Under the pieces are notes generated by a model that saw only the letters and a list, made by a program, of their open reading frames with translations, was not told the DNA's origin and did no database searches. This document shows, in pieces, positions 4,412-23,262 of a stretch of DNA of 37,171 nt. This DNA comes from Streptosporangiaceae bacterium (lineage in GTDB: Bacteria > Actinomycetota > Actinomycetes > Streptosporangiales > Streptosporangiaceae). The position numbers and the translations under genes were made by a program. Each line of letters opens with the position of its first letter. Position 1 is the first letter of the stretch. Location: the NCBI GenBank assembly GCA_036393895.1, contig DASWGE010000178.1:1-37171 (forward strand). Reading direction: 5' to 3'.

Positions 4412-5080
4412 TCAGCGGGTGAGGGCGCTCTGCCCCGCGCCTGCGTAGAGCTCCGCTGCGCGCCAGCAGTACCAGGCCGCGACGCTGCGGTAGGGCCGGA
4501 ACGGGTCGCCAAGCGGCTGGAGCTCTTTAGCGGTCGGCGTCGGAATGCCCCACGCGAGCCCGAAGCCTTTCCTGACCCCGAGGTCGCCCGTCGGCCAGAC
4601 GTCCAGGCGCCGGAGCCGGAAGAGCAGGAACATATCCGCCGTCCACTGCCCGATTCCGCGGACGGACGAAAGCCTCACTGCGATCTCTTCGTCGCTCAGC
4701 CCTCGCAGCCGGCGCGGGTCAAGCACGACCGTCCCGTCGAGCACCTTGGTTGCCAGATCGCGCAAGGAGGCGACCTTGGCCGCGGACAGACCAACGGAAC
4801 GTAGCGTTTCGTCGGAGAGCGGCAGCAGCCGTTCTGGCGTCACCTCACCGCTCATGGCCGCGATCAGGCGGCCGTGAATCGCAGCAGCTGCCGCGCCGGC
4901 CAGCTGCTGGTACACGATCGCGCGGACTAGGGCGGCGAAATGCCCTTCGGTGAGCGCCTGCAGGCGCGGCGGACCTGCCTGCTCAATCAGACGGCGCAGC
5001 ACGGGATCCCGCTCAGCCAGGATCGCGGCGGCCGCCGGGTAGCCGCGGACCGGCCGATCGCCTGCTGGCTGACTGGGCAT
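4412..5080 (-). CDS. DNA-3-methyladenine glycosylase II-like (short HhH-GPD family) base-excision repair enzyme
   Basis: HhH motif VRGIGQWTADMFLLF followed by the catalytic-Asp region DVWPTGDLGVRKG. ATG at 5080 gives about 222 aa. The longer ORF to 5215 would overlap the upstream gene. Confidence 0.8.
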   Translation of the reverse strand: MPSQPAGDRPVRGYPAAAAILAERDPVLRRLIEQAGPPRLQALTEGHFAALVRAIVYQQLAGAAAAAIHGRLIAAMSGEVTPERLLPLSDETLRSVGLSAAKVASLRDLATKVLDGTVVLDPRRLRGLSDEEIAVRLSSVRGIGQWTADMFLLFRLRRLDVWPTGDLGVRKGFGLAWGIPTPTAKELQPLGDPFRPYRSVAAWYCWRAAELYAGAGQSALTR

Positions 5081-5177: not shown

Positions 5178-6530
5178 TCAATCCTGAAAGCCGCTGACTT
5201 CCTCTTCTGACCCACTCACCGCGCTGTCGGTCAGATCCTGGCGCGCAGGATCATCCTCGCGCGGATCAGCGCTGCTTTCGAGTGCGGTGTCCTCCCGGTA
5301 ATCGGTGGCAATGTCGATGACCTGAGTTTGCGGAAGGAACGAAGGGTCGAGCCGCACCAAGTCCCATTCGTTGATCCAGGACCGCACATATTGCCGCATC
5401 CGGGTGGCCCCAAGCCGTTCCAGGCCAGCTACGTCTGGCGGTGACCAGCCGAATGCGTCGCCGTGCAGCTTCTTGAGCGACCCGTATGCGCGGTCAAGCT
5501 CGTCATTGTCCGGCGGCTCGAGCAGGAGCATGTCGTGCTCGATGTGGCGCATGCCCGCCTCAGCGAGCCCCGCCGTGACATCCCACTCAGGTGACTCCTT
5601 GGCTCGGAGTCGTGCCGGGATCTGGTTGCGATCGTCCTTGCCCGTCAGAACGGCGGCTTCGAAGTCATCTGTCATCGCAAATACCGTGACCAGCGGCAAC
5701 CCTGAGCCGCCCTCCCGGCCGGCCAGCCACCTGGCCAGTTCGGCATACGAACGTCCTCGTTGCAGCAGTGAATAGCGGCCGATCAGCTCGACCTCGTCGA
5801 AGAAGATAACCCAGCCCTTGTGCCCGGCCGCTCGCAGCAGGCGGGCAGCGAATGAGAACCGCTGGCGCGCGAGTTCGCGCGCGGTCACCGGCGCAAAGTT
5901 AAAAAGGCCCGCCGCCCCGACCGACCGGAGCGCGCGGCGCAGGTCGGTCATTCGCAGCGGCTCGCCGCCCCAGAACCGGACGAGGGCGTCGACCGTCTCA
6001 TCGCTGCCTGGCACATCGCCACCGCGAAGCCGCTCGTGGCAGAGCAGGGTGGCCGGAAATCGCTCGTCGAGTCCGCTCACCGGAGAATTCACCCAGCGGC
6101 TCAGCTCGGCATAACGCGGCGTATCGGGGTCCAGCGCAGCGGCGGATTCGGTCAGTACTCCGTGCGCGCGTCCCGGGTCCACGGCCGTCTGAGTGGCGGC
6201 TCGGAATACCTTCACTGGATCGTGAAGCGGCGTCTCCTTGCTGATAACGACCGTGCTCACCACAAAGCCCGATGTCATGGCCAGGTGGCCCAGGTGGGTC
6301 AGAAGGTGACTCTTTCCTGAGCCAAACCCGCCGCCCAGCAGGAGTCCCGGTGACTCAGATCCAAGCCTCGCTGGCTCACTCGCGCGTTCTAGAAGGGCCG
6401 TGAACCGATCCTCGGTCGCCGGCTGGCCAGAGCCGAGCACCGCGACGGCGTCCCAGCTTGGCACGCCCGACCGGAGCGCCTCAACAGCCCGGCGCCTGGC
6501 GATTAGTTCCTGGCTCATCGGCCCGCTCAT
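5178..6530 (-). CDS. BrxD-like (DUF2791-type) P-loop NTPase with acidic C-terminal tail
   Basis: 450-aa ORF. The N-terminus RRRAVEALRSGVPSWDAVAVLGSGQ is followed by Walker A GGGFGSGKSH and Walker B WVIFFDEVE. The tail is ...ESSADPREDDPARQDLTDSAVSGSEEEVSGFQD. The start overlaps the upstream stop (ATGA). The family assignment is from memory of DUF2791/BrxD sequence features and is not searched. Confidence 0.7.
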   Translation of the reverse strand: MSGPMSQELIARRRAVEALRSGVPSWDAVAVLGSGQPATEDRFTALLERASEPARLGSESPGLLLGGGFGSGKSHLLTHLGHLAMTSGFVVSTVVISKETPLHDPVKVFRAATQTAVDPGRAHGVLTESAAALDPDTPRYAELSRWVNSPVSGLDERFPATLLCHERLRGGDVPGSDETVDALVRFWGGEPLRMTDLRRALRSVGAAGLFNFAPVTARELARQRFSFAARLLRAAGHKGWVIFFDEVELIGRYSLLQRGRSYAELARWLAGREGGSGLPLVTVFAMTDDFEAAVLTGKDDRNQIPARLRAKESPEWDVTAGLAEAGMRHIEHDMLLLEPPDNDELDRAYGSLKKLHGDAFGWSPPDVAGLERLGATRMRQYVRSWINEWDLVRLDPSFLPQTQVIDIATDYREDTALESSADPREDDPARQDLTDSAVSGSEEEVSGFQD

Positions 6531-7546
6531 GCGATCGCTTCCAACCGGACCTCGAGCCGTATCAGGGCGGCGAAGGGATTGGCGCGCCGCCGGTCACGAA
6601 CTTCATCGGCGACCCTGAGCTGCAGCGCCGAGTAGGCGGGCAGGCCCCGGGACTCATCGGTCATCAGTTCGGGCGGGATCACCGCTACGACGAGGACACC
6701 TCGCAGTTCGTCGGTGGAATCGATGAACTGGCGCAGCACCTCGTAGGCATCGAGGACCGCGGCCTTTGAGTAGTAGAAGCCATCCCTGGCTTCCGCGGGC
6801 GGGCGCCGTGCTACAGCGAGCCGGCCGTAGTCGAGGTGCAGAACCAGGCCGCCTTGACCAGCCGCCAGGAGCAAGGCCGCGGTGGACAGGAGCATGGCCC
6901 TGGCGTTGTGCCGGCCGATACGGGTGTAGATGAGCGCGGATCGCAGCGCCGCGATAGATCGCAGTTCGCCGCGTAGCCAGCCGAGCACGGCCTCGTGCTC
7001 GGCCGTGTCGACGTCCCCTGCTCCTAGCTGCGCCTGTGCAATGCGCAGCATCGCGCGGCCCATCTCGGCCGTGATCGCAGGATCGTCCAGCAACCTGCGC
7101 TCAAGCAGCCGGCGGACGCTGCGGTAAAGCTCGCGGGCGTCCACGTCATGACGACGGGCGACCTCTGCCACCACCAGCGGAGCGCCGGGCGGGACGGGGA
7201 AAGCCGCGTGCTCATACGCAGCGCGCACATGAGCGGCCGCCAGCCCGTGCCAGTCGACCGCCCTGGACACGGCGAAGAAGATCTGGTCGACCATGTGGAC
7301 GCGGGCTGAGTCGGCCGAGATGCTGACCCAGAGGCTGGCGTGGTCGGCCGCAGCCGCTGCCAGCGCTGACTCGAGCCGGTCGGCAGCCTGGCTATCGCCC
7401 ACCACTGCTACCTTGACCGCTGCGCCGCCGGCCGACACGTAACGTGCCAGGTACTCGCGAGCGAGGAATTCGGCGTAGTCATCGACCTTCAAAATGCCTC
7501 CGCCCAGCACGCCACTCGGCGCCATGAGCTGGCCCGAACTAGTCAT
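6527..7546 (-). CDS. Hypothetical protein, probable degenerate (Walker-A-less) ATPase-fold partner of the downstream P-loop protein
   Basis: 339-aa ORF with ATGA overlaps at both ends. The strand-loop AVKVAVVGDSQAADR sits where a P-loop would be, with no GK[ST]. There is a hydrophobic strand plus Asp, GGLVLHLDYG (Walker-B-like), and later GVLVVAVIPPELMTDE, which parallels LPLVTVFAMTDDFE in the neighbour. Paralogy is inferred. Confidence 0.6.
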   Translation of the reverse strand: MTSSGQLMAPSGVLGGGILKVDDYAEFLAREYLARYVSAGGAAVKVAVVGDSQAADRLESALAAAAADHASLWVSISADSARVHMVDQIFFAVSRAVDWHGLAAAHVRAAYEHAAFPVPPGAPLVVAEVARRHDVDARELYRSVRRLLERRLLDDPAITAEMGRAMLRIAQAQLGAGDVDTAEHEAVLGWLRGELRSIAALRSALIYTRIGRHNARAMLLSTAALLLAAGQGGLVLHLDYGRLAVARRPPAEARDGFYYSKAAVLDAYEVLRQFIDSTDELRGVLVVAVIPPELMTDESRGLPAYSALQLRVADEVRDRRRANPFAALIRLEVRLEAIA

Positions 7547-8331
7547 TGCGGCACCGGTGCTGTGAACGACACACCCCAGTAGCGTTGCTGCTGGCCCGTC
7601 CGGGCAACGGTGGTGAGCACCCCGGCGGTCCGGGTACCGCTGCTGGCATGCCAGCGCAACGCCCTTCCGGCCTTGGTCACCCGCTCGCTGCTTTGATCGA
7701 GCAGATAGAGGTCGCGCGCGAACTCGGGGCGGGTGTACTCCTTTCCCTGTCCTGGTAGCAAGGTCAGCACGGACCAGATGTCCACAAGGCGCACTACGGC
7801 ATCCGGCTTCTTCCCGGTCCGGGCAACCACCAGCTCGTAGCCGGTTGCCAGGCTCTCCAGGAACTGCGCGGAACGGAACTTGGGCGGTCGCTGCTGTCCG
7901 GCTGACAGCAGCCCGATCAGCGCCGATGGACGCAGCCGCCGCTCCCGCTTTCGATCGATCTCGACCAGCGCGTCGGCCGGCACGACACGCACGATCGACG
8001 GATAGCAGAGCAGCCGTTCGTCCTCCTCGAACATCGCCAGACCTCGATCGGCAGCGAGCGCCAGCAGTTCCTTGGCATATTCTCCAGAGCCGAGGTACGC
8101 GGACTCGTCGAGGTCGAACGAGGCCCGCACGTCCTGCACCGTGAAGGACATTTCGTTAGCAAGCTCGGCGGCCGCGCCAAGCGCGCGCCGCAGTTCCCGT
8201 ACCTCGCCGCCCTCAGCGGCTGCTTTGGCCTTGCGGAGCTCCCTGGTCAGAACGCCGGCCGACTTGAGCGCAGCCGCCGCCCCATCGGCTGTGCCGCTTA
8301 GCGCTGATTCGAACCTGCCCGCAGACTCCAC
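7543..8331 (-). CDS. Hypothetical protein, Ala/Arg-rich helical N-terminus plus unrecognised C-terminal domain (first gene of the three-gene cassette)
   Basis: The ORF is open to 8631, but that extension overlaps the divergent methyltransferase gene. An in-frame GTG at 8331 is preceded by GAAGGAG with a 5-nt spacer. Sequence: VESAGRFESALSGTADGAAAALKSAGVLTRELRKAKAAAEGGEVRELRRALGAAAELANE... ...RYWGVSFTAPVPQ. I recognise no motif. Confidence 0.6.
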   Translation of the reverse strand: MESAGRFESALSGTADGAAAALKSAGVLTRELRKAKAAAEGGEVRELRRALGAAAELANEMSFTVQDVRASFDLDESAYLGSGEYAKELLALAADRGLAMFEEDERLLCYPSIVRVVPADALVEIDRKRERRLRPSALIGLLSAGQQRPPKFRSAQFLESLATGYELVVARTGKKPDAVVRLVDIWSVLTLLPGQGKEYTRPEFARDLYLLDQSSERVTKAGRALRWHASSGTRTAGVLTTVARTGQQQRYWGVSFTAPVPQ

Positions 8332-8384
8332 TCTGGCTCCTTCAAACCGCCCGGATGACACTCTAACGTTGGCCACAGACGACG

Positions 8385-8398
8385 CCGATTCAAATCGG
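8385..8398. promoter_or_regulatory. 14-bp palindrome CCGATTcaAATCGG in the divergent intergenic region (possible operator)
   Basis: Perfect 6+6 inverted repeat in an unusually AT-rich patch about 55 nt upstream of the proposed cassette start. Related TTCGAA/TTCAAA cores occur at 8306-8314 and 8341-8346. Confidence 0.2.
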
Positions 8399-8535
8399 GC
8401 GCCAGCACAGCAACCTATCGCCGGAACCGCCACGGCTCCCGGTTTCCGGCCAGGTTCGGAAGCGCTGCACCGCAACACCCGTCGCCGTCCCTTCAGGGCA
8501 TCTGGCCCATCAATCGGACCGGTAGTCTGCTGCGC

Positions 8536-9258
8536 ATGGACCAGCCTGCTGACACGAATGCGGCCATCTGGCAATCCAAACAGACCGCCCAGACCTGGGC
8601 CGCGGAGGCGGCAGCACGCGAGCGGAATCATGCGGCGCAGTGGCAGTTCATGGCCGATCTGCTTCCTTTCGGGGAACAGGACGCGTTCACGTTCGCCGAT
8701 CTAGGCGCGGGGACAGGGAATCTATCGCGCGCGATCCTCAGCAGGCACCCGCACAGCACGGCGATACTGGCCGACTTCTCCGACCAGATGATCGGGGCCG
8801 GCGAGCGCGAAATGCAGCCGTTCCGCGGGCGCTACCGCTACGTCGAATTCGACCTGTCGACGGGCCAATGGCCCGCGGAGATTCCGGCCCGGGTCGATGC
8901 GGTCGTGACCTCACTGTGCGTCCACCATCTGCCCGATGAGCGTAAGCAGGGCCTGTTCAGCGAGATCTTCGAGCACCTTGTCCCGGGCGGCTGGTCGCTC
9001 AACTACGACCCGGTGCGCCCCGAGGATCTCGTAGTTGCCGCGGTGTGGCAGCGGGTGGGCGATTACTACGATCCCGAGACGGCGCGCAGGCGGCTGCATC
9101 CGACGCCGGAGGAGCGGGCCCGGCATCAGAACCACGTACGGTACATGATCCCGCTGACCCAGCAGCTGGCGTACCTCCAGGCGGCCGGATTCCAGGGCAT
9201 CGATATCTACTGGAAGCGGCTTGAGTGGGTCATTTACGGCGGGCGCCGACCGGACTAA
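8536..9258 (+). CDS. Class I SAM-dependent methyltransferase (small-molecule type)
   Basis: 240-aa ORF with motif I FADLGAGTGNLS, an acidic post-I residue (LADFS) and VVTSLCVHHLPD. No (D/N/S)PP(Y/F/W) DNA-methyltransferase motif is seen. Confidence 0.85.
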   Translation: MDQPADTNAAIWQSKQTAQTWAAEAAARERNHAAQWQFMADLLPFGEQDAFTFADLGAGTGNLSRAILSRHPHSTAILADFSDQMIGAGEREMQPFRGRYRYVEFDLSTGQWPAEIPARVDAVVTSLCVHHLPDERKQGLFSEIFEHLVPGGWSLNYDPVRPEDLVVAAVWQRVGDYYDPETARRRLHPTPEERARHQNHVRYMIPLTQQLAYLQAAGFQGIDIYWKRLEWVIYGGRRPD

Positions 9259-9286: not shown

Positions 9287-10555
9287 CTAGACTTTGCGTC
9301 TCGTAGTCGCCTCGGTGAGCAGACGGAGATCGATAGCGTGTTCCGGTGAAGCGAACGGAGAGCCTGGCGCACTGACATCGAAGCGACCGCTGTCCGGCAC
9401 GTAATCGCGGCCGCGGGCGATGACGCGCCGGAGCTTTCCTAGCGCCGAGATGTCGGTTCCCGGGTCGCCGTCCACGACGATGAGGTCGGCGTCGTATCCG
9501 GGTGCGAGGCGGCCGGTGATGGTATCGAGGCCGAGCGCCGCCGCGGCCTCTGTGGTAGCCATCGCGAGCACCTCCGCTGCCTGGAAACCCAGCGTCACCA
9601 GGTATTCCAGCCCGCCGACGTACTGGTGGTGCGGCGTGTTGTCGATGCCCGCGTCCGTGCCCGCGATGAGTCGCACGCCCATCTCGTGCATCGCCTTAAG
9701 ATGCTGGCCGACACGGATGCCGGTCAGTTGCGCGACGTAGGGGGCGTTCACGCTGGTTGTCGGGCAGACGAAGATGCCGCTCTCCGCGATCTCCGCGGCG
9801 AGCGGCTCGCTGAAGAGCCGCTCGTTGGTCTCGGTGACGAACGAGCAATGCTCAAGCGTGGTCACGCCGGCTTTGACCGCCCGGTGGATGCCCTCGATGC
9901 CGTGGGCGTGCGCGGCGACCGGCTTGTCGACTCGCCTCGCCTCATCGACGACCACCGCCAGCTGCTCGCAACTGAACTGGGCGTACCAGGGTGCCGATCC
10001 CGGCGTCATGAACCCGCCGGTCGACATGACCTTGATCAGGTCCGCGCCCCGCTTGTGGTGGGTCCGAACCATGCGCCGGAGGTCATCCTCACTGTCAGCT
10101 TCGCCGCCCATGAACCAGCAGTGCCCGCCGGTGACGGTGATCGGGCGGGTCGCGACGACCAGCCGTGGCCCGCGGGCCAGGCCCGCAGCGATCGCATCAC
10201 GAACGACCACGTCCAGATAGGCTCGCGCGCCGAGGTCCCGTGCTGTCGTGACGCCCACGCCGAGCAGATCACGGGCGTTATGCAGCATCAGGACGAGTTG
10301 CTGCTCGTCGGTCTCGCTGCGCATCCGCGCGGCCGGCTGGGGGCCGCCGTCGAATCCGAGATGGACGTGGCAGTCGATCAGGCCCGGCGTGATGGTTGAG
10401 CCTGGATAGTCAGTCCGTGGCAGCCGCGCGAACTCCGCCGGCAGCATAGCGGCGCAGCCGACCCAGTCCACGGTGGTGTCGCCGACCACGACCGCGCCGT
10501 CGGTCACCGTCGCGTCACCGGTCATGACGCGCCGCGCGGTGAGCACCTCTGCCAT
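9287..10555 (-). CDS. Amidohydrolase-family metallo-hydrolase
   Basis: Motifs PGLIDCHVHLGFDG, AAHAHG and AGTDAG. ATG at 10555 is preceded by GAGGTGG. The maximal ORF runs to 10618. Confidence 0.85.
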   Translation of the reverse strand: MAEVLTARRVMTGDATVTDGAVVVGDTTVDWVGCAAMLPAEFARLPRTDYPGSTITPGLIDCHVHLGFDGGPQPAARMRSETDEQQLVLMLHNARDLLGVGVTTARDLGARAYLDVVVRDAIAAGLARGPRLVVATRPITVTGGHCWFMGGEADSEDDLRRMVRTHHKRGADLIKVMSTGGFMTPGSAPWYAQFSCEQLAVVVDEARRVDKPVAAHAHGIEGIHRAVKAGVTTLEHCSFVTETNERLFSEPLAAEIAESGIFVCPTTSVNAPYVAQLTGIRVGQHLKAMHEMGVRLIAGTDAGIDNTPHHQYVGGLEYLVTLGFQAAEVLAMATTEAAAALGLDTITGRLAPGYDADLIVVDGDPGTDISALGKLRRVIARGRDYVPDSGRFDVSAPGSPFASPEHAIDLRLLTEATTRRKV

Positions 10556-10719
10556 GCCACCACCTCGCCTCGGCCAGCCCGCAGAGCGCGAACGGCAGCG
10601 TTGGCGACGGGAATCCACGCTATGGGAGCGCCGGAAACACCGTCAAGGCCGCGGATCATGACCAATGCCGATTGCCGGGCGGGGATGGTGCAGGTGATCA
10701 GGTACAGCCGGTGCAGGAT

Positions 10720-11898
10720 ATGGGGGTGGGAAGTCTCAGAGACGCGATCGACGGTACAACTGCCGAGATGCTCCGCGCCCGACAGAGCGTCAAATGGACA
10801 ACTCCGGGTCCGGGCGGATTCGGCGCGGCAATTGCGGAGATGGACTTCGGCGCCGCCCCGCCGGTCATCGACGCGCTGGAACGGCTGTCAGAGGACGCGG
10901 CGTTCGGCTACCTGCCGCCGCATCTTTCTGAGGAACTCGCCGTGGTGTGCGCGGAGTTCGAGCTGCGCCGCTTCGGATGGGAGCTTGACCCGGCGGTGAT
11001 CCACCCGGTTCCTGACGTGATCAAAGCTCTGGAGATCGCCATCACGCATTTCTCGCGCCCGGACTCGCCTGTCATATTGCCGACGCCCGCTTACATGCCG
11101 TTTCTCATCGTGCCTGGCCTGCTCGGCCGCGAGATCATCCAGGTGCAGATGCGCAACGACGGAGGGTTCTTCACCCTCGACCTCGACGCGATCGAGGACG
11201 CCTTTCGCGCCGGAGGGCATCTGGTCGTCTTCTGCAACCCTTACAATCCGCTCGGGCGCGTCTTCACTCGCGACGAGATGATGCAGCTTACTGAGGTGGT
11301 CGACCGGCACGGCGGCCGCGTTTTCGCTGACGAAGTCCACGCGCCGCTCGTCTATCCGGGGCAGCGACACATCCCGTACGCGTCGACCTCTGACGCTGCC
11401 GCATCACACACGCTGACCTCAACGTCCGCCTCCAAAGCGTGGAACCTGCCGGGTCTCAAGTGCGCAGTTGTGATCCTCAGCAACGAGCCGGACAAGCAGC
11501 ACTGGGAGGAAATGGGAGTCTTCGCATCGCACGGTGCGAGCAATCCCGGCGTGGTCGCCAACATCGCGGCATTCCGGCATGGCGAGCCGTGGCTGGACGA
11601 AGTCCTCGCTTATCTCGACGAGAGTCGTCAGCTGCTCGGCGGCCTGCTCAGCCGAAAACTTCCGACGGTGCGCTACCGACCGCCCGACGGCACCTATCTG
11701 GCCTGGCTGGACTGTACGGCGCTGGATCTCGCCGAGTCGCCCGGCGTACTCGTGACTGACCGGGCGCGCGTCAGTGTCGTGGACGGGCCAGCCTTCGGCG
11801 CCGGCGGCGCAGGGTCGTTCCGGTTCAACTTCGCGACGCCGCAACCGCTCCTCACCGAGATGATCGAGCGGATCGCCGCCGTCCTAAACACCGGGTAG
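10720..11898 (+). CDS. PatB/MalY-type PLP-dependent aminotransferase / C-S lyase
   Basis: LRARQSVKWT lies near the N-terminus, with the PLP-lysine context TSASKAWNLPGLKCA and FCNPYNPLGRVF. The start is ambiguous: 10672 for the maximal ORF, or 10720. Confidence 0.8.
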   Translation: MGVGSLRDAIDGTTAEMLRARQSVKWTTPGPGGFGAAIAEMDFGAAPPVIDALERLSEDAAFGYLPPHLSEELAVVCAEFELRRFGWELDPAVIHPVPDVIKALEIAITHFSRPDSPVILPTPAYMPFLIVPGLLGREIIQVQMRNDGGFFTLDLDAIEDAFRAGGHLVVFCNPYNPLGRVFTRDEMMQLTEVVDRHGGRVFADEVHAPLVYPGQRHIPYASTSDAAASHTLTSTSASKAWNLPGLKCAVVILSNEPDKQHWEEMGVFASHGASNPGVVANIAAFRHGEPWLDEVLAYLDESRQLLGGLLSRKLPTVRYRPPDGTYLAWLDCTALDLAESPGVLVTDRARVSVVDGPAFGAGGAGSFRFNFATPQPLLTEMIERIAAVLNTG

Positions 11899-11930
11899 GA
11901 CCATCACCATGCGCTATACCCGGTTGACTT

Positions 11931-12638
11931 TCAAGCCAGCTCGGATGCGGCGGCGCCGATGAGGCCACAACCGCTGGTCAGCGGCGGCGCGGAAGGCACG
12001 GCCGAGTCCTCGTATCCGATCAGTCCGTAGCGCATGGCGGTCATCAAAACTTGGGCGCGGTTGGCCGCACCGAGCTTGTCGTAGAGCCGCGCAACGTAGG
12101 TCTTGGCGGTCGACTGGCTGATGTACATCGCGAGCGCGATGGCTGGGATCGACAGCCCGTCCCTCAGGTACCGCAGGACCTCGGCCTCTCTCGGGCTGAG
12201 CGCCAGCCGGTCCCTGATCGTGCGCCGCCTGGTGATCGCCACGGCCAAGCCCGAGGCCGTGAACGACGATGCGGCTACCGCGGCGTGCCTGATCGCGGCG
12301 AGCACTTCCTCGACGGGAGCGGTCTTCGCCACGAACGCGGATACGCCGGTCTCCATCGCGCGGAACAGCACATCGTCCTCACCCCGCGAGGTGAGCATGA
12401 CAATCCCCAGGTCGACGTAGAGATCGCGGAAGATCCTCGCGAGTCGCATGCCGTCGCCATCGGGCAGCGTCGCGTCGATGGTGACGACATCGGGGCCAGA
12501 CTGGGCGATCGTCTCGGGTGCCAGGCCGGCAAAGCCGCACTCAGCCACGATCTCGATGTCAGCATGCTCCGCGACTAGCTGGCGCAGGCCGTACCTGGTG
12601 AGTGTATGGCCGTCCACTATGGCCAGGCGTATCGTCAT
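11931..12638 (-). CDS. Orphan LuxR/NarL-family response regulator
   Basis: Receiver MTIRLAIVDGHTLTRYGL...DVVTIDATLPDGDG and HTH LSPREAEVLRYLRDGLSIPAIA. There is no adjacent kinase. The maximal ORF starts at 12662. Confidence 0.85.
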   Translation of the reverse strand: MTIRLAIVDGHTLTRYGLRQLVAEHADIEIVAECGFAGLAPETIAQSGPDVVTIDATLPDGDGMRLARIFRDLYVDLGIVMLTSRGEDDVLFRAMETGVSAFVAKTAPVEEVLAAIRHAAVAASSFTASGLAVAITRRRTIRDRLALSPREAEVLRYLRDGLSIPAIALAMYISQSTAKTYVARLYDKLGAANRAQVLMTAMRYGLIGYEDSAVPSAPPLTSGCGLIGAAASELA

Positions 12639-12827
12639 CGCGAACCCCCCCAGGCTCTGCATTATGGTGCGTCAGCGGAGCCCCTTGTGCTTGCGCGGCA
12701 ACCTGGACGCGACTCACCTGGGATGTTTCTGACGTGGCATCACGAACTAGACGTGGTGCCCTTGTGGCTAGTTGGCACAGCCTTTGCATTGTTGTCGTTC
12801 TGTGATGAGAGGTTGCTCGCTCGTTCA

Positions 12828-13541
12828 CTAGCGGCCGGTGAGGACCGCGAGAAACGCCCCGGCGAGCATGTAGGGCCCGAAGCTGATCATGGCGCGCCTG
12901 GAGATCCTCCGGCTGGTGAGCAGGACGAGCCCGACGGCGGCAGCTGTCACGAAGCCGAGGCTCGCCCCGGCGAGCAGCGTTCCCCAGCCAAGCCAGCCGA
13001 GCAGCAAGCCGATCAACCCGGCCAGCTTGATATCCCCGCCGCCCAGCTGGCTGGCGCTCAGCAGGCCGAGCACCAGGTACGCGGCGCCGAGCGCCAGTCC
13101 GCCAAGCAGCGCCCTGGCGAATCCCGGCCAGGCGTCATCGGCTGCCGCGGCCAGCGCCAGCAGGACGATCATCCCCGGATAGGCCGGCAGCGTCAGCCGG
13201 TCGGGAAGCCGCTGCACGGCGACGTCGACCTGCGCGAGCGCCACGCCAAGTATGGCGAGGAAGGCGGCCGCACCAAGGGCTGGCTGGAAGCCGATCCTTG
13301 CGGCCAGGAGTGCCAGAACGGCCGCTGTCACCACTTCGATCGCCATCGGCGCGCCAATCCAGGATCCGCAGTGCCAGCACCGGATCGCTGGGCGCCGCGG
13401 CAGCGCGGCCGCGCACTCCCGGCAGGTCATCTCCTCCGGCTCGCCGCTCGGCACGGACATCCTGGCTACCTGGCCGCGCAGCACCGTGCCGGCCGGCAGG
13501 CCGACGGCCGCGCTCGTCGCAACCGAGATCACGTCCATCAT
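12828..13541 (-). CDS. A24-family type IV prepilin (Flp) peptidase
   Basis: 237-aa polytopic ORF. It has an N-terminal CRECAAALPRRPAIRCWHCGS (CxxC-x12-CxxC) and the catalytic Asp contexts LPDRLTLP and GGGDIKLAG. It is divergent from the flp genes. Confidence 0.85.
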   Translation of the reverse strand: MMDVISVATSAAVGLPAGTVLRGQVARMSVPSGEPEEMTCRECAAALPRRPAIRCWHCGSWIGAPMAIEVVTAAVLALLAARIGFQPALGAAAFLAILGVALAQVDVAVQRLPDRLTLPAYPGMIVLLALAAAADDAWPGFARALLGGLALGAAYLVLGLLSASQLGGGDIKLAGLIGLLLGWLGWGTLLAGASLGFVTAAAVGLVLLTSRRISRRAMISFGPYMLAGAFLAVLTGR

Positions 13542-13782
13542 TTACGCCTCGCAGCGCCGGGGGATCTGCTAGAAGTTCGATTAACGGTCCCAGGCGACCT
13601 CTGTCCTTCGCTGGCCCTTGTCATCCGTTTGAATGACGTGTCGGCCGATAAGACGAACTTGTCCGCTCGTTATCCGGAAGTCACTTTCGGTCATGATCAA
13701 ACCTATACGCTGCGCGGTACTAGGCGGCACGGTGCCGTCCAGAAGGCGTGGATCGCTCGCCGGCCTGTCGAAGGAGTTCCGA

Positions 13783-13965
13783 ATGCTGAAGCACCTGGTG
13801 TCACTCAACAACCGTCTCGCTCAGCTCCGCAGCGACGACCGCGGAGTGACCTCGGTCGAGTACGGCCTCATGGTCGCCTTGATCGCGGTCGCGATCATCG
13901 GGTCGGTCATTGCGCTCGGCGGAAAGCTGAACACCCTGTTCACCGACGTCGCCAACGCGATCTGA
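13783..13965 (+). CDS. flp: Flp-family type IVb pilin 1
   Basis: 60 aa: MLKHLVSLNNRLAQLRSDDRG/VTSVEYGLMVALIAVAIIG... This is the Flp processing motif (G/xxxxEY plus a hydrophobic stretch). GAAGGAG lies 6 nt upstream of the ATG. Confidence 0.9.
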   Translation: MLKHLVSLNNRLAQLRSDDRGVTSVEYGLMVALIAVAIIGSVIALGGKLNTLFTDVANAI

Positions 13966-13980
13966 CCAATAGCTCTCAGG

Positions 13981-14010
13981 GGAGCGAGGCGGGTTCATTC
14001 GCCTCGCTCC
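13981..14010 (+). terminator. Perfect stem-loop between the two flp genes (attenuator/stabiliser or partial terminator)
   Basis: GGAGCGAGGCG-ggttcatt-CGCCTCGCTCC forms an 11-bp GC-rich stem starting 16 nt after the flp1 stop. There is no clear U-tract. Confidence 0.5.
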
Positions 14011-14047
14011 GCTTGCTGCCACACAACTCGCTCCGCCTGCTGCCACA
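14003..14047 (+). repeat. Two 21-bp direct repeats (CTCGCTCCGCyTGCTGCCACA) with a 24-bp period upstream of flp2
   Basis: 14003-14023 and 14027-14047 differ at one base. The first copy overlaps the 3' arm of the hairpin. Confidence 0.6.
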
Positions 14048-14062
14048 AAAAGGAGGATTCCG

Positions 14063-14248
14063 ATGCTCGCTGTCTTCGCGTCGGCGCGGCGGATTCTGGG
14101 CCGTCTGCGGGTCCTGGATGAGCGAGGCGTCACCTCCGCGGAGTATGCGCTGATGGCGACGCTCATCGCTGTCGTGATCAGCGGCGCGGTGGCCGTATTC
14201 GGGTTGAGCGTTAACAACTTGTTCAGCGGGATCGCCGGGGCATTCTGA
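14063..14248 (+). CDS. flp: Flp-family type IVb pilin 2
   Basis: 61 aa: ...LDERG/VTSAEYALMATLIAVVISG... AAAGGAGGA lies upstream of the ATG. Confidence 0.9.
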   Translation: MLAVFASARRILGRLRVLDERGVTSAEYALMATLIAVVISGAVAVFGLSVNNLFSGIAGAF

Positions 14249-14325
14249 ATGTCGAACATCGGACCGTGCGACGGCCGGCCTGCACCGCTCGCACGGTTGC
14301 CGGAGTTGGAAGGGGGTTGGCGAGG

Positions 14326-14739
14326 ATGAGTCGGCGACTGTTCGGTTTGCCCGATCGGGGGGCTGCTGCCGTGGAGTTCGCGATCATGCTCCCGCTGCTG
14401 CTGCTGATCATCTTCGGCATCATCGACTTCGGCCGGGCACTCAACGCCCAGGTCACGATCACCCAGGCGGCCCGCGAAGGGGCCAGGCTCACGGCCCTCA
14501 ATCAGCCGAACGTGGTGAGCCGTACCCAGGCAGCGGCGACCGGGCTCAGCGGCGTAGGCGTGACCGTGGCCGCATCCTGCCCAGCCGGCTCTGGGCCGAC
14601 CGCCAACGCCGACGTCCAGGTCAGCTACTCCTTCAACTTCATCACGCCAATTGGCGCGATCGCCAAATTGTTCGGCGGGTCGGGACTCGGGTCCACGCTC
14701 ACGCTCACCGCCGAGGGAGTCATGCCATGCGAAACCTGA
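14326..14739 (+). CDS. tadE: TadE-like pseudopilin/minor pilin
   Basis: TadE N-terminal signature GAAAVEFAIMLPLLLLIIFGIIDFGR. ATG at 14326. The maximal ORF starts with GTG at 14266. Confidence 0.8.
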   Translation: MSRRLFGLPDRGAAAVEFAIMLPLLLLIIFGIIDFGRALNAQVTITQAAREGARLTALNQPNVVSRTQAAATGLSGVGVTVAASCPAGSGPTANADVQVSYSFNFITPIGAIAKLFGGSGLGSTLTLTAEGVMPCET

Positions 14740-15845
14740 TGCGAGGCCTGCCCCGTCCGATGCTCCGCCTGCTCGGCCGCGACGACCGGGGCGCTGTCGG
14801 CGTGCTCGTGGCGATACTAGTAGGCGGTGGCGTGCTGCTCGGGTTGGGTGCCCTGGTCGTCGATGTCGGGCAGTTGTACTCCGAGCGGGCTCAGCTTCAG
14901 AACGGCGCCGACGCGGGCGCGCTGGCCGTGGCCAAGAGCTGCGCGGAGGGCAGTTGCGCGTCGGGGGCCGCCACGCTGTACGCGAACGAGAATTCCGCTG
15001 ACGGTGTTTCCGCTGTCAACCTGGTCTGCGGTTCGGGCGCCCTCGGTGCTTGCCCTGCCAGCACCGGTAAGATCTACGACTGCCCGTCGGCGCCGAAGGC
15101 CGGCACGAACTACGCGGACGTACATACGTCCACGCTGACGACGAGCGGCTCGACTCTGCTGCCGCCATCGCTGGCCCGGACACTGCTCGGCATGAGCAAT
15201 TACAAGGGTTCCACTGTCTATGCCTGTGCCCAGGCATCCTGGGGGCCGCCGCTGGCGTCGAGCGGCCTCGCGCTGACAATCTCGGCGTGCGAGTGGGACG
15301 CGGCGACGCAGAACGGGACGGTTTTCGCCCCTCCGCCGCCGTACCCGCCCAACCCCCTTCCTTCGCCGTCCCTCGACCGCCAACTCAAGCTGCACACCAC
15401 CTCAACCGTAGGCGGCTGCCCGACCGAGCCATCCGGCGCGGACGGACCAGGCCTGTTCGGCTGGACCAGCGATCCGACCAACAGCTGCCTCACGCCGATC
15501 ATCAACGGCCAGTTCGGCGGCAGTACGGGTACGAGCATCTCGCAGCCCTGCAAGACGGTAATCAGCGCCGATCAGCAGAACAAGACCCTGATCTTCATGC
15601 CGATCTACGTGTTGGTGCAGAACCCCGGTAACAACGCCGTCTATACCCTGAAGGGCTTCGCCGCATTCGTGATCACCGGATACCAATTGCCAGGTTTCAA
15701 CGCCCACGACTGGCTCAACCGGGCCAACGACTGCACGGGCTCCGACAAGTGCATCGAGGGCTACTTCACCCAGGGGCTTGTCCCGAATCCTGGAACCATC
15801 GGCGGCCCGAACCTCGGTGCCGACATCATCGCGCTGACCGGCTGA
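14727..15845 (+). CDS. TadG-like (Tad_N / TadE-G-like) pilus-associated protein with large Cys- and Pro-containing C-terminal domain
   Basis: N-terminus DDRGAVGVLVAILVGGGVLLGLGALVVDVGQLYSERAQLQNGADAGALA. 372 aa. Overlaps tadE by 13 nt. Confidence 0.7.
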   Translation: MRNLMRGLPRPMLRLLGRDDRGAVGVLVAILVGGGVLLGLGALVVDVGQLYSERAQLQNGADAGALAVAKSCAEGSCASGAATLYANENSADGVSAVNLVCGSGALGACPASTGKIYDCPSAPKAGTNYADVHTSTLTTSGSTLLPPSLARTLLGMSNYKGSTVYACAQASWGPPLASSGLALTISACEWDAATQNGTVFAPPPPYPPNPLPSPSLDRQLKLHTTSTVGGCPTEPSGADGPGLFGWTSDPTNSCLTPIINGQFGGSTGTSISQPCKTVISADQQNKTLIFMPIYVLVQNPGNNAVYTLKGFAAFVITGYQLPGFNAHDWLNRANDCTGSDKCIEGYFTQGLVPNPGTIGGPNLGADIIALTG

Positions 15846-15897
15846 CCTTGGGCACGGGAATCGCGGAGCAGAGCACGCGCGGAAGCGGAGAAGAGTC

Positions 15898-16689
15898 TTG
15901 ACACGTCGCATCCTGACAGTCGTCCTGGCGATCGTCCTGGCCGTGATCGGCACCGGAGCCGTCCTGCTTTACGTCAAGGGAGCGGATCAGCGAGCCATCG
16001 CCGGCCAGAAGGCCGTCAGCGTCTTGGTGGCCGCGCAGCAGGTTCCGGCTGGCACCACCGCCGGTACCGCCCTCAGCGAAGGGCTGCTGAGCCGGCAGAA
16101 GCTGCCCGCCGCCTCGGTGCCCTCTGACGCGGTCCGTTCAGTCACACCGCAGCTGACCGGCCTGGTGCTGAGCGCTGATCTCCCGTCGGGCCAGCTTTTG
16201 CTGCGACCGATGCTGGTGACGGCCGTTGCCGCCCGCAGCGGTCTGCCGATCCCTTCCGGCAAGGTGGCGCTGAGCCTGCAGTTCTGCCTTGCCAGGGACG
16301 TCGCGGGTTATGTCCAGGCAGGCTCTGAGGTGGCGGTGTTCAATACCTCCGGCACAGGCACGCCCGGCAGTGCCACAAACTGCGCGGGAATCAGCGCCCA
16401 GAAGGGCGTAAAAGGCCTTCATACGAGGCTGGTGCTGCCCAAGGTTCAGGTGCTGGCGGTCGGGCCAGCGCCGACTTCGACGGCCAGCGGCACCGGGGCC
16501 ACGAGCACGGCGTTCTCGCAGAACAGCTCGTCAACACAGTCTTCCAGCACCACGATCATGCTGGTCACGGTGGCCGTCAACCAGTTCCAGGCCGAGCAAC
16601 TGATCCACCTCGATGAGAACCAGGTGCCCTACCTCGCGCTGGTGACGCCTTCCTCGGGGGTCAAGGCCGACGTCCAGTTCCAGCCATAA
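15898..16689 (+). CDS. cpaB: CpaB/RcpC-family Flp pilus assembly protein
   Basis: TTG start preceded by GGAAGCGGAG. There is a single N-terminal TM segment ILTVVLAIVLAVIGTGAVLLYV, then a SAF-like segment VSVLVAAQQVPAGT. Confidence 0.8.
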   Translation: MTRRILTVVLAIVLAVIGTGAVLLYVKGADQRAIAGQKAVSVLVAAQQVPAGTTAGTALSEGLLSRQKLPAASVPSDAVRSVTPQLTGLVLSADLPSGQLLLRPMLVTAVAARSGLPIPSGKVALSLQFCLARDVAGYVQAGSEVAVFNTSGTGTPGSATNCAGISAQKGVKGLHTRLVLPKVQVLAVGPAPTSTASGTGATSTAFSQNSSSTQSSSTTIMLVTVAVNQFQAEQLIHLDENQVPYLALVTPSSGVKADVQFQP

Positions 16690-16715
16690 GCCCGTCCGTT
16701 AGGGAAACGATAACC

Positions 16716-17891
16716 ATGCCCATCCTGTGCGAGCCAAAGGCTTCCGCAAGGGACCTGGTCATTTCCATCGGCGGGAACGTGCGTGCCGCGGACACGTTGC
16801 ACGCAGCGGCCCAGATGCTCGAGAACGATCCGGGCGAGACACTGCTCGTGATCGGCCCCGACACCCCGGTCGGCGAGGCGCTGACGTTCGCCTCGACGCT
16901 CAGGCTGATCCGGCCGGCCGTCGGCGTAATCCTGGCCAGGGAGTATGTCGACGTCAACCTGCTCACCCAGGCGCTTCGCTCCGGTGTCAGGGAGGTGGTG
17001 CAGGCAGGCGATGCCGCAGCCCTCAACGCCGCGTGCCAGCGGTCTTATGAAGTGTCCATGCGACTGCTCAGCACGACGCCGCAGCCCGAGCCGCCGCACG
17101 GCAGGGATGGCCAGATCATCACGGTTTTCGCCGCGAAGGGCGGCTGCGGGAAGACCACCTTCGCGATCAACCTTGGCGTGGCGCTGGCCAGGAACATCGA
17201 CCGGCGGGTGTGCGTCGTGGACCTCGACCTCGCGTTCGGAGACGTAGCGATCAGCGTGCAGCTTGACCCAGCTAAGACCATTGTCGACGCGCTGCCCATG
17301 GCCGGCCACCTGGACGAGACGGGTACGTCATCGCTGCTGACCCGCTACCAGCCCAACCTCGAGATGCTGCTCGCGCCGACCACGCCGGGAGACGCGGAAA
17401 AGATACCGCCGTCGCTGGTCGGCGAACTCCTCGGTGTGCTTCGCACGATCTTCGACTACGTGGTGGTCGACACGCCCGCGCAATTCAGCGAGCACGTCCT
17501 CACCGCCATGGATAACTCGGCGCATCACGCGCTGCTCACCACGCCCGACGTGCCCGCGCTGAAGAACCTGAGGATCACGCTCGACATGCTCGACCTGCTT
17601 TCCTATCCGCGGCAGATCCGCTCGGTCGTGCTGAACCGCTCGGACTCCAAGGTGGGGCTGAGCCTGGAGGACGTCGAGCGCGTAGTCAGGTGGCCGATCG
17701 CCGCTTACATTCCTTCCAGCCGCGATGTACCCATCTCGATCAACAAAGGCACGCCGCTGACGGTCGCGAACCCAGGTCATCCCGCCAGCCAGGCAATCGC
17801 GCGGTTCGCCCAGCTGCGACTGCTTGGGCCGGCCGGAGCAGACGACGGTGGCCGATCAGGTCGCTCACGCGGTCGGAGGCGGTCGGCATGA
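16716..17891 (+). CDS. tadZ: TadZ/CpaE-like ParA/MinD-family ATPase with degenerate N-terminal receiver-like domain
   Basis: Deviant Walker A FAAKGGCGKTT and VVDLDLAFGD. The N-terminal roughly 120 aa resemble a receiver fold. Confidence 0.8.
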   Translation: MPILCEPKASARDLVISIGGNVRAADTLHAAAQMLENDPGETLLVIGPDTPVGEALTFASTLRLIRPAVGVILAREYVDVNLLTQALRSGVREVVQAGDAAALNAACQRSYEVSMRLLSTTPQPEPPHGRDGQIITVFAAKGGCGKTTFAINLGVALARNIDRRVCVVDLDLAFGDVAISVQLDPAKTIVDALPMAGHLDETGTSSLLTRYQPNLEMLLAPTTPGDAEKIPPSLVGELLGVLRTIFDYVVVDTPAQFSEHVLTAMDNSAHHALLTTPDVPALKNLRITLDMLDLLSYPRQIRSVVLNRSDSKVGLSLEDVERVVRWPIAAYIPSSRDVPISINKGTPLTVANPGHPASQAIARFAQLRLLGPAGADDGGRSGRSRGRRRSA

Positions 17892-19285
17892 GCCTGTCAG
17901 ACCGGCTGGCGCAGCGGGTGACGCCCACGGTGGTCTCCACCGAGAAGCGGGGAGGCGCCCACCGGCTGCTGATCGAACCGCCGCGCCGACCCGGCCGGCA
18001 GGTCGACCCGTTCGCGGCCGTCAAGCGCAATGTCCACGAGGGACTGCTAGAAGTGCTCGGGCCGAAGCTCTATGACGTCCAGCTCGACCAGAAAGAGCTC
18101 GAGCTTCAGGTCACCCAGACGCTTCAGGCGGTGCTGCAGCGCGACGAAACGCCACTGACCATTGCCGATCGGTCGAGGGTCGCTCAGGAGGTCGCTGACG
18201 AGATACTCGGACACGGGCCGCTCGAGCCGTACCTGCGCGATCCTGGCATCTCCGAGATCATGGTGAACGGGCACGACCAGATCTACGTGGAGCGCGACGG
18301 CCGCCTGTATCCAGTGGCCGCCGCTTTCATGGACGAGAACCATCTGCGCCGCGTCATCGACAAGATCGTCGCGAGAGTGGGCAGGCGGGTCGACGAATCG
18401 AGCCCGATGGTCGATGCCCGCCTTCCGGACGGCAGTCGCGTCAACGCCGTGGTGCCGCCCATCGCGCTCGATGGCTCGCTCCTTACTGTCCGTAAGTTCG
18501 CCGCTGACCCGTTTACCGTGGCCGACCTTATCTCGTTCGGGACTATGAGTCCGCAGGTTGCCGACCTCCTGGAAGCCTGCGTGCGCGGTCGGCTGAACAT
18601 CGTGATCGGCGGCGGCACCGGTTCGGGCAAGACGACCACGCTCAACGTGCTCTCTGCGTTCGTGCCGCACGATGAGCGGATCGTGACCATCGAGGACGCC
18701 GCCGAACTGCAACTGCGCCAGGAGCACGTGCTCCGGCTGGAGTCGCGGCCGCCGAGCCTGGAGGGCACCGCCCAGGTGACGATCCGCGACCTGGTGCGGA
18801 ACTCGCTACGGATGAGGCCGGATCGCATCATCATCGGCGAGATCAGGGACGGTGCCGCCCTCGACATGCTGCAGGCGATGAACACCGGCCACGACGGCTC
18901 GATCACCACGCTGCACTCGAACTCGCCGCGGGATTCGCTGGCCCGCCTGGAGACCATGGTCCTCATGGCGGAGATGGACCTGCCGCAGCGGGCGATCAGG
19001 GAGCAGATGACCTCGGCCATCGACCTGATCGTCCATCAGACAAGGCTCAAGGACGGGACGAGGCGGATCACCCACATCACAGAGGTCGAGGGCATGGAAG
19101 GCGACGTGATCACGCTGCTCGACGTGTTCGTGTTCGACTTCAGGGCGGGTGTGGACCAAGACGGACGGTTCCTGGGCAGCCTCCGTCCGACCGGGCTTCG
19201 GCCCCGATTCATCGAGACGCTCGCCGATCGCGGAGTCACCCTCTCCCCGGCGATCGTGGGCGGCGGCGAAGGATTCGCTCGGTGA
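17888..19285 (+). CDS. tadA: TadA/CpaF secretion ATPase
   Basis: Walker A GGGTGSGKTT, RIIIGEIRDGAA and His box GHDGSITTLHSNS. The ATG overlaps the tadZ stop (ATGA). The maximal ORF from 17690 overlaps tadZ. Confidence 0.9.
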   Translation: MSLSDRLAQRVTPTVVSTEKRGGAHRLLIEPPRRPGRQVDPFAAVKRNVHEGLLEVLGPKLYDVQLDQKELELQVTQTLQAVLQRDETPLTIADRSRVAQEVADEILGHGPLEPYLRDPGISEIMVNGHDQIYVERDGRLYPVAAAFMDENHLRRVIDKIVARVGRRVDESSPMVDARLPDGSRVNAVVPPIALDGSLLTVRKFAADPFTVADLISFGTMSPQVADLLEACVRGRLNIVIGGGTGSGKTTTLNVLSAFVPHDERIVTIEDAAELQLRQEHVLRLESRPPSLEGTAQVTIRDLVRNSLRMRPDRIIIGEIRDGAALDMLQAMNTGHDGSITTLHSNSPRDSLARLETMVLMAEMDLPQRAIREQMTSAIDLIVHQTRLKDGTRRITHITEVEGMEGDVITLLDVFVFDFRAGVDQDGRFLGSLRPTGLRPRFIETLADRGVTLSPAIVGGGEGFAR

Positions 19286-20910: not shown

Positions 20911-20922
20911 GAGGCTGGTTCA

Positions 20923-22850: not shown

Positions 22851-22894
22851 GGAGAAGAACTGCGCAGGGTGCTGAATCGTGACCACCCGCCAGG

Positions 22895-23122: not shown

Positions 23123-23262
23123 GCACGATCCGGCCGATGTCCGTTCAGCGACAGTGCCCGGAAAGTTCACCGCGCAGGGGGTTACCGGTTTGCCGAGAGT
23201 CCGTAGCGTCGAGCGACGTACGTTCTACGTTCCCCCGGACCAGCTCGCGGAAGGCTGATTTG

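Follow-up and report, generated by a model that had tools for sequence, protein, structure and literature searches.

The PF10923 ATPases BrxC, BrxD and SngB are central to the bacteriophage exclusion (BREX) and Shango systems. BrxD, the accessory ATPase of BREX types 2 (phage growth limitation, Pgl) and 6, is a stand-alone ATPase without DNA-binding domains. It forms a tightly linked pair with the superfamily 2 (SF2) helicase BrxHI, of which it is the proposed loader or activator, and has been classified in the origin recognition complex (ORC)/Cdc6-type clade (PMC12839542). Shango, experimentally shown to be an anti-phage system (PMC10250203), consists of the TerB protein SngA, the ATPase SngB and the helicase SngC, and SngB, likewise a BrxD-like member of PF10923, works with an SF2 helicase. 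In BREX type 1, the active ATPase BrxC is paired with BrxB, a catalytically inactive partner with an NTPase fold (PDB 9zll, 9zn5). We focus here on a three-gene cassette, g1-g2-g3, which lies on the minus strand between positions 5178 and 8331 of a 37-kb contig from a Streptosporangiaceae metagenome-assembled genome; this contig is the whole stretch of DNA that was analysed and is called the window below. The trio is a minimal, widespread three-protein version of these ATPase systems. Our leading, though tentative, reading is that it constitutes an AAA+ sensor/loader module that is induced by DNA damage, arose by exaptation from a defence system of the helicase-nuclease kind and works with a partner encoded elsewhere.

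The three genes and their products

In the window, g1 occupies 7543-8331 (minus strand; 262 amino acids (aa), GTG start at 8331), g2 6527-7546 (minus; 339 aa, ATG start) and g3 5178-6530 (minus; 450 aa, ATG start). Successive genes are joined by ATGA stop/start overlaps on the minus strand, at 7543-7546 between g1 and g2 and at 6527-6530 between g2 and g3. These overlaps had been recorded in an earlier reading made from the letters of the window alone (the sequence-only reading), and they are kept in relatives: within the actinobacterial clade, NTGA overlaps are found at 89 of 91 g2/g3 junctions and at 71 of 98 g1/g2 junctions. The longest open reading frame (ORF) for g1 extends to 8631. We place the start at GTG 8331 because a ribosome-binding site, GAAGGAG, lies 5 nucleotides (nt) ahead of it at 8337-8343 (minus), because homologues are 259-264 aa long, and because the GC content at third codon positions (GC3) falls upstream, from 0.78 within 7543-8331 to 0.60 within 8332-8631. 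The sequence-only reading had given about 263 aa for g1, one residue more than the 262 aa counted from this start. A divergent methyltransferase gene begins at 8536, upstream of g1.

g3 is the sole catalytic subunit of the trio and is a BrxC/BrxD/SngB-family, AAA+-like P-loop ATPase. It passes the Pfam model PF10923 (BrxC_BrxD) with 56.3 bits against a gathering threshold of 22.2, and it carries the Walker motifs of that family: Walker A, GGGFGSGKSH, at 6306-6335 (minus; residues 66-75) and Walker B, VIFFDEVE, at 5787-5810 (minus; residues 241-248). A set of 45 diverse orthologues shows no variation at G67, F69, G70, G72, K73, S74 or H75, nor at D245, E246 or E248, and across 116 orthologues FGxGKSH, D245/E246/E248 (DExE) and an N-terminal RRAxEALRxGVP segment are conserved at 90% or more. 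The protein ends in an acidic, disordered tail (residues 401-450; 5181-5330, minus) that opens with a DY.ED..LE motif. In the AlphaFold2 (AF2) model the predicted local distance difference test score (pLDDT) of residues 403-450 is below 50, and in 116 of 116 orthologues the net charge of the tail is -4 or lower, with a median Asp/Glu content of 32-34%. The intact Walker motifs, the DUF2791/BrxD-like character and the acidic tail that the sequence-only reading attributed to g3 are thus all borne out, the family match being significant and the motifs being conserved in orthologues.

Matches of the trio proteins in PADLOC are limited to BrxD, SngB and, weakly, BrxC. g3 matches BrxD at E 1.7e-13 and SngB at E 1e-4 (19.5 bits), while g2 matches BrxD at E 2.2e-11 and also gives a weak SngB match. 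Against the NCBIfam BrxD equivalog NF033438, on the other hand, g3 scores 52.5 bits and g2 41.3 bits where the cutoff is 350, and we therefore treat both as members of PF10923 and not as orthologues of BrxD. The best sequence match of g3 in the PDB is BrxC. Its AF2 model has a pLDDT of 74.9, a moderate confidence probably due to the restriction of the alignment to homologues at least 67% identical, on which the model was built; the best Foldseek matches of this model are RdrA and the N-terminal region of BrxC (probability 0.99-1.0, E 0.014, template modelling (TM) score 0.28-0.35).

g2 also passes PF10923, with 51.8 bits against the threshold of 22.2, yet it lacks the Walker motifs of the family and is a degenerate member of it. 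The P-loop position reads VVGDSQAADR (7376-7405, minus; residues 48-57) and is variable across the family, with no conserved Walker A or GK[ST] across 127 g2 orthologues. A remnant of the Walker B strand persists as LVLHLDYG (6824-6847, minus; residues 234-241), which keeps the Asp but no longer has the Glu. Profile-profile comparison with hhalign sets LVLHLD of g2 on the g3 Walker B strand VIFFDEVE (probability 83%, E 8.6e-6), and the pattern GL+..+D is conserved in the g2 family. The missing GK[ST], the altered loop and the residual strand are all as first described, and by these motifs g2 is a predicted catalytically dead paralogue of g3, that is, a PF10923 pseudo-ATPase.

g1 has no match in Pfam, PADLOC (v2.0.0) or NCBIfam. 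Its AF2 model has a pLDDT of 95.2 and opens at the N-terminus with a helical hairpin (residues 6-71), which is followed by an alpha/beta domain (76-146) and, at the C-terminus, by a helix-strand-helix-helix-strand-strand unit (154-257) that, from the order of these elements, looks like a winged helix in the model. Foldseek searches against the PDB and the viral database BFVD gave nothing below E 0.2, a profile search of the PDB returned coiled-coil noise against designed helical bundles, and hhalign found no relationship of g1 to g2 or g3. The top Foldseek match was MutH (E 0.46 over 62 columns), which prompted the candidate assignment of g1 as a PD-(D/E)xK nuclease with E88, D104, D126 and K128 as its site; in many members of the alignment, however, position 126 holds G or N in place of D, and K128 is likewise substituted. 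Since this possible site is not conserved, we treat g1 as non-enzymatic: it is a highly conserved protein of unrecognised fold without conserved catalytic residues. The overall anatomy proposed for the cassette, an active ATPase with an inactive paralogue and a small adaptor, translationally coupled, therefore stands.

Conservation, genomic neighbours and upstream motif

Relatives were collected in a genome scan (162 species-level matches, 80 retained) and in a metagenome scan (about 500 further matches). The 80 retained loci all belong to Actinomycetota, among whose families the presence of the trio is patchy. The g1 family as a whole comprises more than 1,300 close homologues in 671 clusters at 50% identity, and its tree splits cleanly into two clades, the actinobacterial clade, to which the window belongs, and a sister clade from other phyla (GC 0.36-0.75; one of its members belongs to Longimicrobiaceae). 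All 80 genome loci and every informative metagenome locus (about 165 loci) have the genes in the order g1-g2-g3, and clustering of the flanking proteins shows the trio alone to be common to the loci. Across families, g1, g2 and g3 each retain 70-80% identity. g1 is absent from 72,556 plasmids, from 50,697 phage records and from the IMG/VR contigs, which, as far as these collections indicate, makes the setting of the trio chromosomal and non-mobile. Frameshifts or gaps interrupt g2 or g3 in a small number of relatives (L005/L026 at 10001-13081, L021, L030, L046, L069 and L079), which shows that the cassette decays on occasion.

The sister clade shows what the trio can be joined to. Its operon consists of the trio, then a gene of about 185 aa to which no family is assigned, then a gene with the Pfam domains SNF2-rel_dom, Helicase_C and Mrr_cat, which the PADLOC ZorD models cover over its full length, helicase and nuclease included. 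Both additional genes follow the trio directly in 18 of 18 sister-clade loci whose sequence runs on for at least 3 kb beyond it. Downstream of the trio in the window's own clade, on the other hand, the small gene is found in 0 of 65 loci and an SNF2 helicase in 5 of 65. Neither gene is present in the 37-kb window, which was searched for SNF2 with tblastn, and the window does not carry the five-gene variant; an 850-aa ORF at 22879-25431, considered as a possible SNF2 helicase, is a phosphoesterase instead. In one five-gene operon (L088), a guanylate-cyclase/PycC-like gene with an AAA_16 domain (12414-13778) stands between g3 and the small gene. Helicases of an actinobacterial SNF2 type do adjoin the trio in 8 actinobacterial loci, which fall in at least four separate places in the tree. 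Those at L001 6294-9890 and L040 13078-15921 show a weak SWIM zinc-finger match or DUF3670 and no Mrr nuclease.

A second link with a described system concerns one monophyletic subclade of 11 loci, in which a complete Shango operon is divergent from g1 (PADLOC: SngA 5e-60, SngB 3.5e-170, SngC 3.6e-263). A further Shango label, at L024, was a false positive: it came from an Lhr-like helicase, 30% identical, that lies at a distance of 2 kb. Of the loci whose flanks extend for at least 4 kb in both directions, about 42 lack both an SNF2 helicase and Shango. In a census of the immediate neighbours at 37 actinobacterial loci (140 proteins), most genes were metabolic. The recurring neighbours were SNF2 helicases (5 of 140), DNA ligase (4) and three weak mad2/mad3 matches, the helicases and the ATP-dependent ligase being the sole nucleic-acid enzymes to recur, and none of pglX, pglZ, brxC/pglY, pglW or brxHI was among the top recurrent PADLOC families in these 140 proteins. 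The expectation that the trio lands in defence islands finds no support in this census, in which SNF2 is the sole recurring defence-like neighbour. The flanks differ in every relative save two contigs that are 98-99% identical, so that the cassette is not part of a syntenic core operon, as the sequence-only reading had supposed it would not be. Its broader suggestion of a link to conflict systems holds in part: the SNF2-Mrr gene of the sister clade and the subclade beside a full Shango operon speak for it, but the link is indirect. Some loci, sister-clade ones among them, are rich in toxin-antitoxin genes and transposases, e.g. L001, L086 and L088, and in L001 transposases flank the trio.

Several features point to PafBC as a possible regulator of the cassette. 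The published PafBC binding motif, tGTCgg(N10)tA(N3)T, combines a -26 element, in which GTC is invariant, with a SigA -10 element (PMC8635444), and is also named RecA-NDp (PMC6789036). PafBC is a WYL activator that senses single-stranded DNA (ssDNA) and controls about 150 DNA-damage genes. The window has a candidate promoter of this type, cGTCtg-N10-TAGAGT, at 8360-8381 (minus), with the -26 GTC at 8378-8380 and the -10 TAGAGT at 8360-8365. It begins 50 nt ahead of the g1 GTG, and the closest relatives have the same geometry at -50 to -55. Upstream of g1 in relatives a TGTCGG...TAGCGT pattern recurs. Of 101 non-redundant upstream regions from actinobacteria, 29 have the strict form TGTC[AG]-N11-TAnnnT on the sense strand, at a distance of 50-96 nt from the start codon, compared with 0.1 expected from shuffles, 2 on the reverse complement, 3 of 761 other genes in the loci and 1 of 46 upstream regions in the sister clade. 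The core GTC-N12-TAnnnT precedes g1 in 48 of the 101 regions and 14 of the 761 other genes (Fisher p ~1e-37), and positions that were not selected for follow the published consensus (T1 in 30 of 47, G6 in 34 of 47, G15 in 43 of 47). The motif is largely absent from the helicase-linked subclades. Loci of this helicase-linked type are those of the cultured carriers Catenulispora pinisilvae NH11, Actinoplanes subtropicus NRRL B-24665 and Micromonospora sp. NPDC057141, which showed no core motif where checked (L058, L077, L078). An ATP-dependent DNA ligase gene is divergent upstream of the trio in 4 loci; in the L007-L010 and L013-type loci (e.g. L009 8020-9807, minus; DNA_ligase_A_N/M/C) it is divergent from g1, and the intergenic region that it shares with the trio bears a PafBC-type motif.

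The weight that we give to the copy in the window comes from its position at -50 and from the relatives. Strict and loose patterns for a LexA/SOS box matched in 0 of 106 regions upstream of g1, no sigma-70 consensus promoter was found at the trio, and no PF10923 gene is reported in the accounts of the PafBC regulon that were consulted. Judged by the motif, the cassette is probably inducible by DNA damage in this genome, and a PafBC motif before the cassette shifts its likely role towards a function induced by DNA damage.

Surroundings in the window

The trio is flanked in the window by genes for a two-component system, an ABC transporter, an HhH-GPD glycosylase, a small-molecule methyltransferase, an amidohydrolase and an aminotransferase. 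None of the window ORFs scanned against Pfam encodes a BREX core protein, helicase, nuclease or DNA methyltransferase, which agrees with the lack of BREX context and of such enzymes that the sequence-only reading reported. Neither sngA (TerB_N/TerB_C) nor sngC or another DEAD helicase was seen in the window, which thus holds no Shango operon. The glycosylase gene (AlkA-like; 4412-5080, minus) has a probable ATG at 5080, 97 nt after the g3 stop, and with no terminator predicted between the two it may be co-transcribed with the trio. An orthologue with 74% identity is found at L024 (8191-8901), upstream and divergent of the trio, and L034, L088 and L091 have more distant HhH-GPD genes in the neighbourhood of the trio. 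GC3 is 0.75-0.79 in the trio, compared with 0.82-0.86 in the two-component, ABC-transporter, methyltransferase and amidohydrolase genes, 0.80 in the adjoining glycosylase gene and 0.785 in the nearby aminotransferase gene; the lower values of the trio may be taken as a mild compositional hint of foreign origin.

Two other elements had been brought into the picture as context for the module, an HNH element and a duplicated gene fragment, and both drop out of it. The first is a partial ORF at the contig edge (1-285, plus) with a sub-threshold match to PF01844 HNH (E 0.0015, 19.1 bits against a cutoff of 21.4); it lies about 5 kb from the trio and is not beside the trio in relatives. The second is a 113-nt direct repeat (378-490 and 4485-4597, 91% identical), the second copy of which falls in the 3' part of the glycosylase gene, and it too has no connection with the trio in relatives. 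Between the two copies lie 4.1 kb that encode a LuxR-type response regulator, a histidine kinase, and an ABC permease and ATPase, and the repeat-bounded block looks like an insertion or duplication junction.

At about 12800-21831 lies a complete-looking Tad/Flp pilus locus, with genes for a prepilin peptidase, an Flp pilin (13633-13965), TadE, a TadG-like protein, RcpC/CpaB, a ParA-like TadZ, a CpaF ATPase and two TadB/C proteins; assorted enzymes lie further off. A 515-aa ORF at 12606-14153 (plus) is probably spurious, since it belongs to no family and overlaps the prepilin peptidase gene. A 218-nt inverted repeat (21456-21673 and 22900-23117), 73% complementary and with its arms 1.2 kb apart, spans the end of the TadC-like gene and the start of the phosphoesterase gene.

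Possible roles and comparison with known systems

We now consider what the trio may do. First of all, the recurrent partnership of such ATPases with SF2 helicases (BrxD with BrxHI, SngB with SngC, and the trio with SNF2 or SNF2-Mrr proteins) suggests recognition of a DNA state and the loading of a helicase or nuclease. Second, the linked effector has gone in Actinomycetota and a damage promoter is present in many lineages, and for this reason a damage-induced sensor/loader is the role that we favour. Third, the glycosylase gene next to the trio, here and in L024, and the DNA ligase gene in 4 loci are DNA-repair neighbours that count in favour of this reading, under which cells may use the complex either for repair or for damage-triggered immunity. 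In mechanistic terms, g1, g2 and g3 would form one ATP-driven, DNA-directed complex. g2 and g3 would make up a hetero-oligomer in which g3 alone hydrolyses ATP, as in BrxC-BrxB and in ORC with its inactive subunits, and g1 would contribute DNA binding or dimerisation through its coiled coil and its winged-helix-like domain. Switched on when PafBC senses ssDNA, the complex would recognise a DNA state, be it damaged or single-stranded DNA or foreign DNA, and would then load, recruit or license an SF2 helicase or nuclease, which in this Streptosporangiaceae genome would be encoded elsewhere.

A number of points weigh against this proposal. The evidence is computational throughout, consisting of sequence comparison and predicted structures. 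No partner helicase or nuclease of the stand-alone trio is known, the characterised PF10923 proteins that we encountered are all components of phage defence, and induction by damage is also compatible with a defence role. The motif copy in the window matches the core alone (GTC and -10) and differs at two soft positions, and such a core stands before 1.8% of other genes; furthermore, the motif counts in relatives (29 and 48 of 101) are phylogenetically non-independent, although the N10 spacers vary between loci. On the structural side, the g3 model is of moderate confidence and its matches are weak (E >0.01), and the winged-helix reading of g1 derives solely from the order of secondary-structure elements, Foldseek being empty. 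A related formulation can be considered possible, if rather doubtful: that the trio is a hitherto unrecognised, PafBC-controlled component of the actinobacterial DNA-damage response, exapted from the sensor/loader half of an undescribed five-gene anti-phage helicase-nuclease system and built around g1 as a subunit with a new fold, or else a damage-triggered immune sensor that has lost its own effector.

The strongest alternative, a serious one to which we give a comparable, minor share of belief, is that the trio by itself is an anti-phage or anti-plasmid module that senses infection, either with an effector activity that has gone unrecognised (for example ATP depletion, DNA remodelling or a toxic g1) or guarding or activating an unlinked effector. 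PF10923 ATPases are known from BREX and Shango only, a ZorD-like helicase-nuclease is joined to the trio in the sister clade, one subclade stands head-to-head with a full Shango operon, and L001, L086 and L088 are the toxin-antitoxin- and transposase-rich loci mentioned above. The patchy distribution among families, the never-syntenic flanks and the GC3 slightly under that of the neighbours count in the same direction, as does the occasional frameshift decay (L005), which is typical of accessory genes. WYL-type regulators control BREX and CBASS (cyclic-oligonucleotide-based anti-phage signalling systems). A damage-responsive promoter is compatible with immunity, and damage-inducible immunity is plausible. 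The three proteins, however, carry no nuclease, protease, NADase, pore or other effector signature, and the PD-(D/E)xK candidate residues of g1 are not conserved. The suggestion of a self-contained sensor/effector, as the sequence-only reading had it, is accordingly not supported, for no effector domain was found, and those relatives that have an effector encode it in two further genes that are absent from the window. Moreover, the immediate flanks are mainly metabolic in the 37 loci, those of the window itself are the two-component, ABC-transporter, glycosylase, small-molecule methyltransferase and amidohydrolase genes, g1 is missing from the plasmid, phage and IMG/VR collections, its identity of 70-80% across families is unusually high for a defence gene, and the adjacency to Shango is a single monophyletic event.

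The other explanations survive far less well. A mobile-element function, with the trio as the AAA+ target-selection or replication-initiator part of a transposon or integrative element, is very improbable. g2 has a weak HTH_Tnp_1 match (residues 125-150, E 0.046), which accounts for the JGI name 'transposase-like protein', and there are the transposases flanking the trio in L001 and the 4.1-kb block bounded by 113-nt direct repeats beside the trio in the window; but no transposase, integrase or relaxase recurs beside the trio, the HTH match falls well short of the threshold, the block between the repeats adjoins the trio without enclosing it, and the trio is absent from plasmids and viral contigs. 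Hardly any credence goes to a leftover of BREX type 2 (Pgl) or Shango with g3 as BrxD or SngB: these are the best family matches of g3, and NCBI names relatives 'BREX system ATP-binding domain-containing protein', but g3 scores 52.5 bits against the BrxD equivalog cutoff of 350 and 19.5 bits where a true SngB scores 564.8, no pglX, pglZ, brxC, pglW, brxHI, sngA or sngC was seen in the window, and in more than 160 loci the conserved partners are those of the trio itself, g1 and g2. Equally hard to credit is the idea that the five-gene system, having lost its helicase-nuclease, survives in the trio as a remnant that is decaying and has no function: the back half is missing across the actinobacterial clade and a few loci are frameshifted, but of about 110 actinobacterial loci the great majority have intact ORFs, the Walker motifs are invariant, identity stays at 70-80%, the start/stop overlaps are preserved and a promoter motif has been gained.

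Whichever role applies, the cassette offers a natural pair of active and dead ATPases together with a well-predicted partner of unrecognised fold. Its two natural forms, with and without the helicase-nuclease, imply that the sensing/loading step is separable from the effector step, and through the PafBC-type promoter a connection of a defence-type ATPase module with the DNA-damage response of actinobacteria can be tested at once. Protection against phage by the five-gene form would make that form a new defence system, whereas a role of the trio in repair would add a new repair factor to the phylum of Mycobacterium and Streptomyces; the exaptation, if true, would document how immune machinery can be domesticated to maintain the genome.

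We found no description of the trio or of its five-gene form in the literature searched, and PADLOC v2.0.0, Pfam and NCBIfam hold no model for g1, in keeping with the view that the cassette is undescribed. Comparison with described systems brings out both the kinship and the differences. First of all, BrxD belongs to the same Pfam family and is the best PADLOC and NCBIfam match of g2 and g3, and relatives of the trio are paired with SNF2 helicases as BrxD is with BrxHI. Here, on the other hand, duplication has given one active and one dead ATPase, g1 is always found with them, and there are no BREX core genes; the helicase of the relatives is SNF2-Mrr and not BrxHI, and the actinobacterial copies often stand behind a PafBC-type promoter. 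Second, Shango has one ATPase and nothing like g1, whereas the trio has no TerB protein or helicase and its similarity to SngB is marginal. Third, the pairing of g3 with g2 resembles that of BrxC with BrxB, but BrxB is an inactive STAND protein with no paralogous relationship to BrxC, which itself has extra domains and a length of about 1,200 aa and whose matches to g3 are weak (E 0.01-0.05). Fourth, the SNF2 and C-terminal Mrr architecture of ZorD (Zorya type I) is that of the fifth gene of the sister-clade operon; this gene is absent from the window, and its partners are the trio and the protein of about 185 aa, with no ZorA, ZorB or ZorC. The GTC geometry just upstream of the first gene is like that in the PafBC regulon, although here it is predicted from sequence and the window copy is core-only. 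Finally, ORC/Cdc6-type AAA+ loaders combine active and inactive subunits, winged-helix elements and helicase loading, and serve as a working analogy only, given that the Foldseek matches are weak (E 0.27-0.8) and that the winged-helix-like element is on a separate polypeptide, g1. Taken against these systems, the trio appears to be a helicase-associated BrxD/SngB-type module that is novel in its new-fold subunit and in its predicted link to the PafBC regulon.

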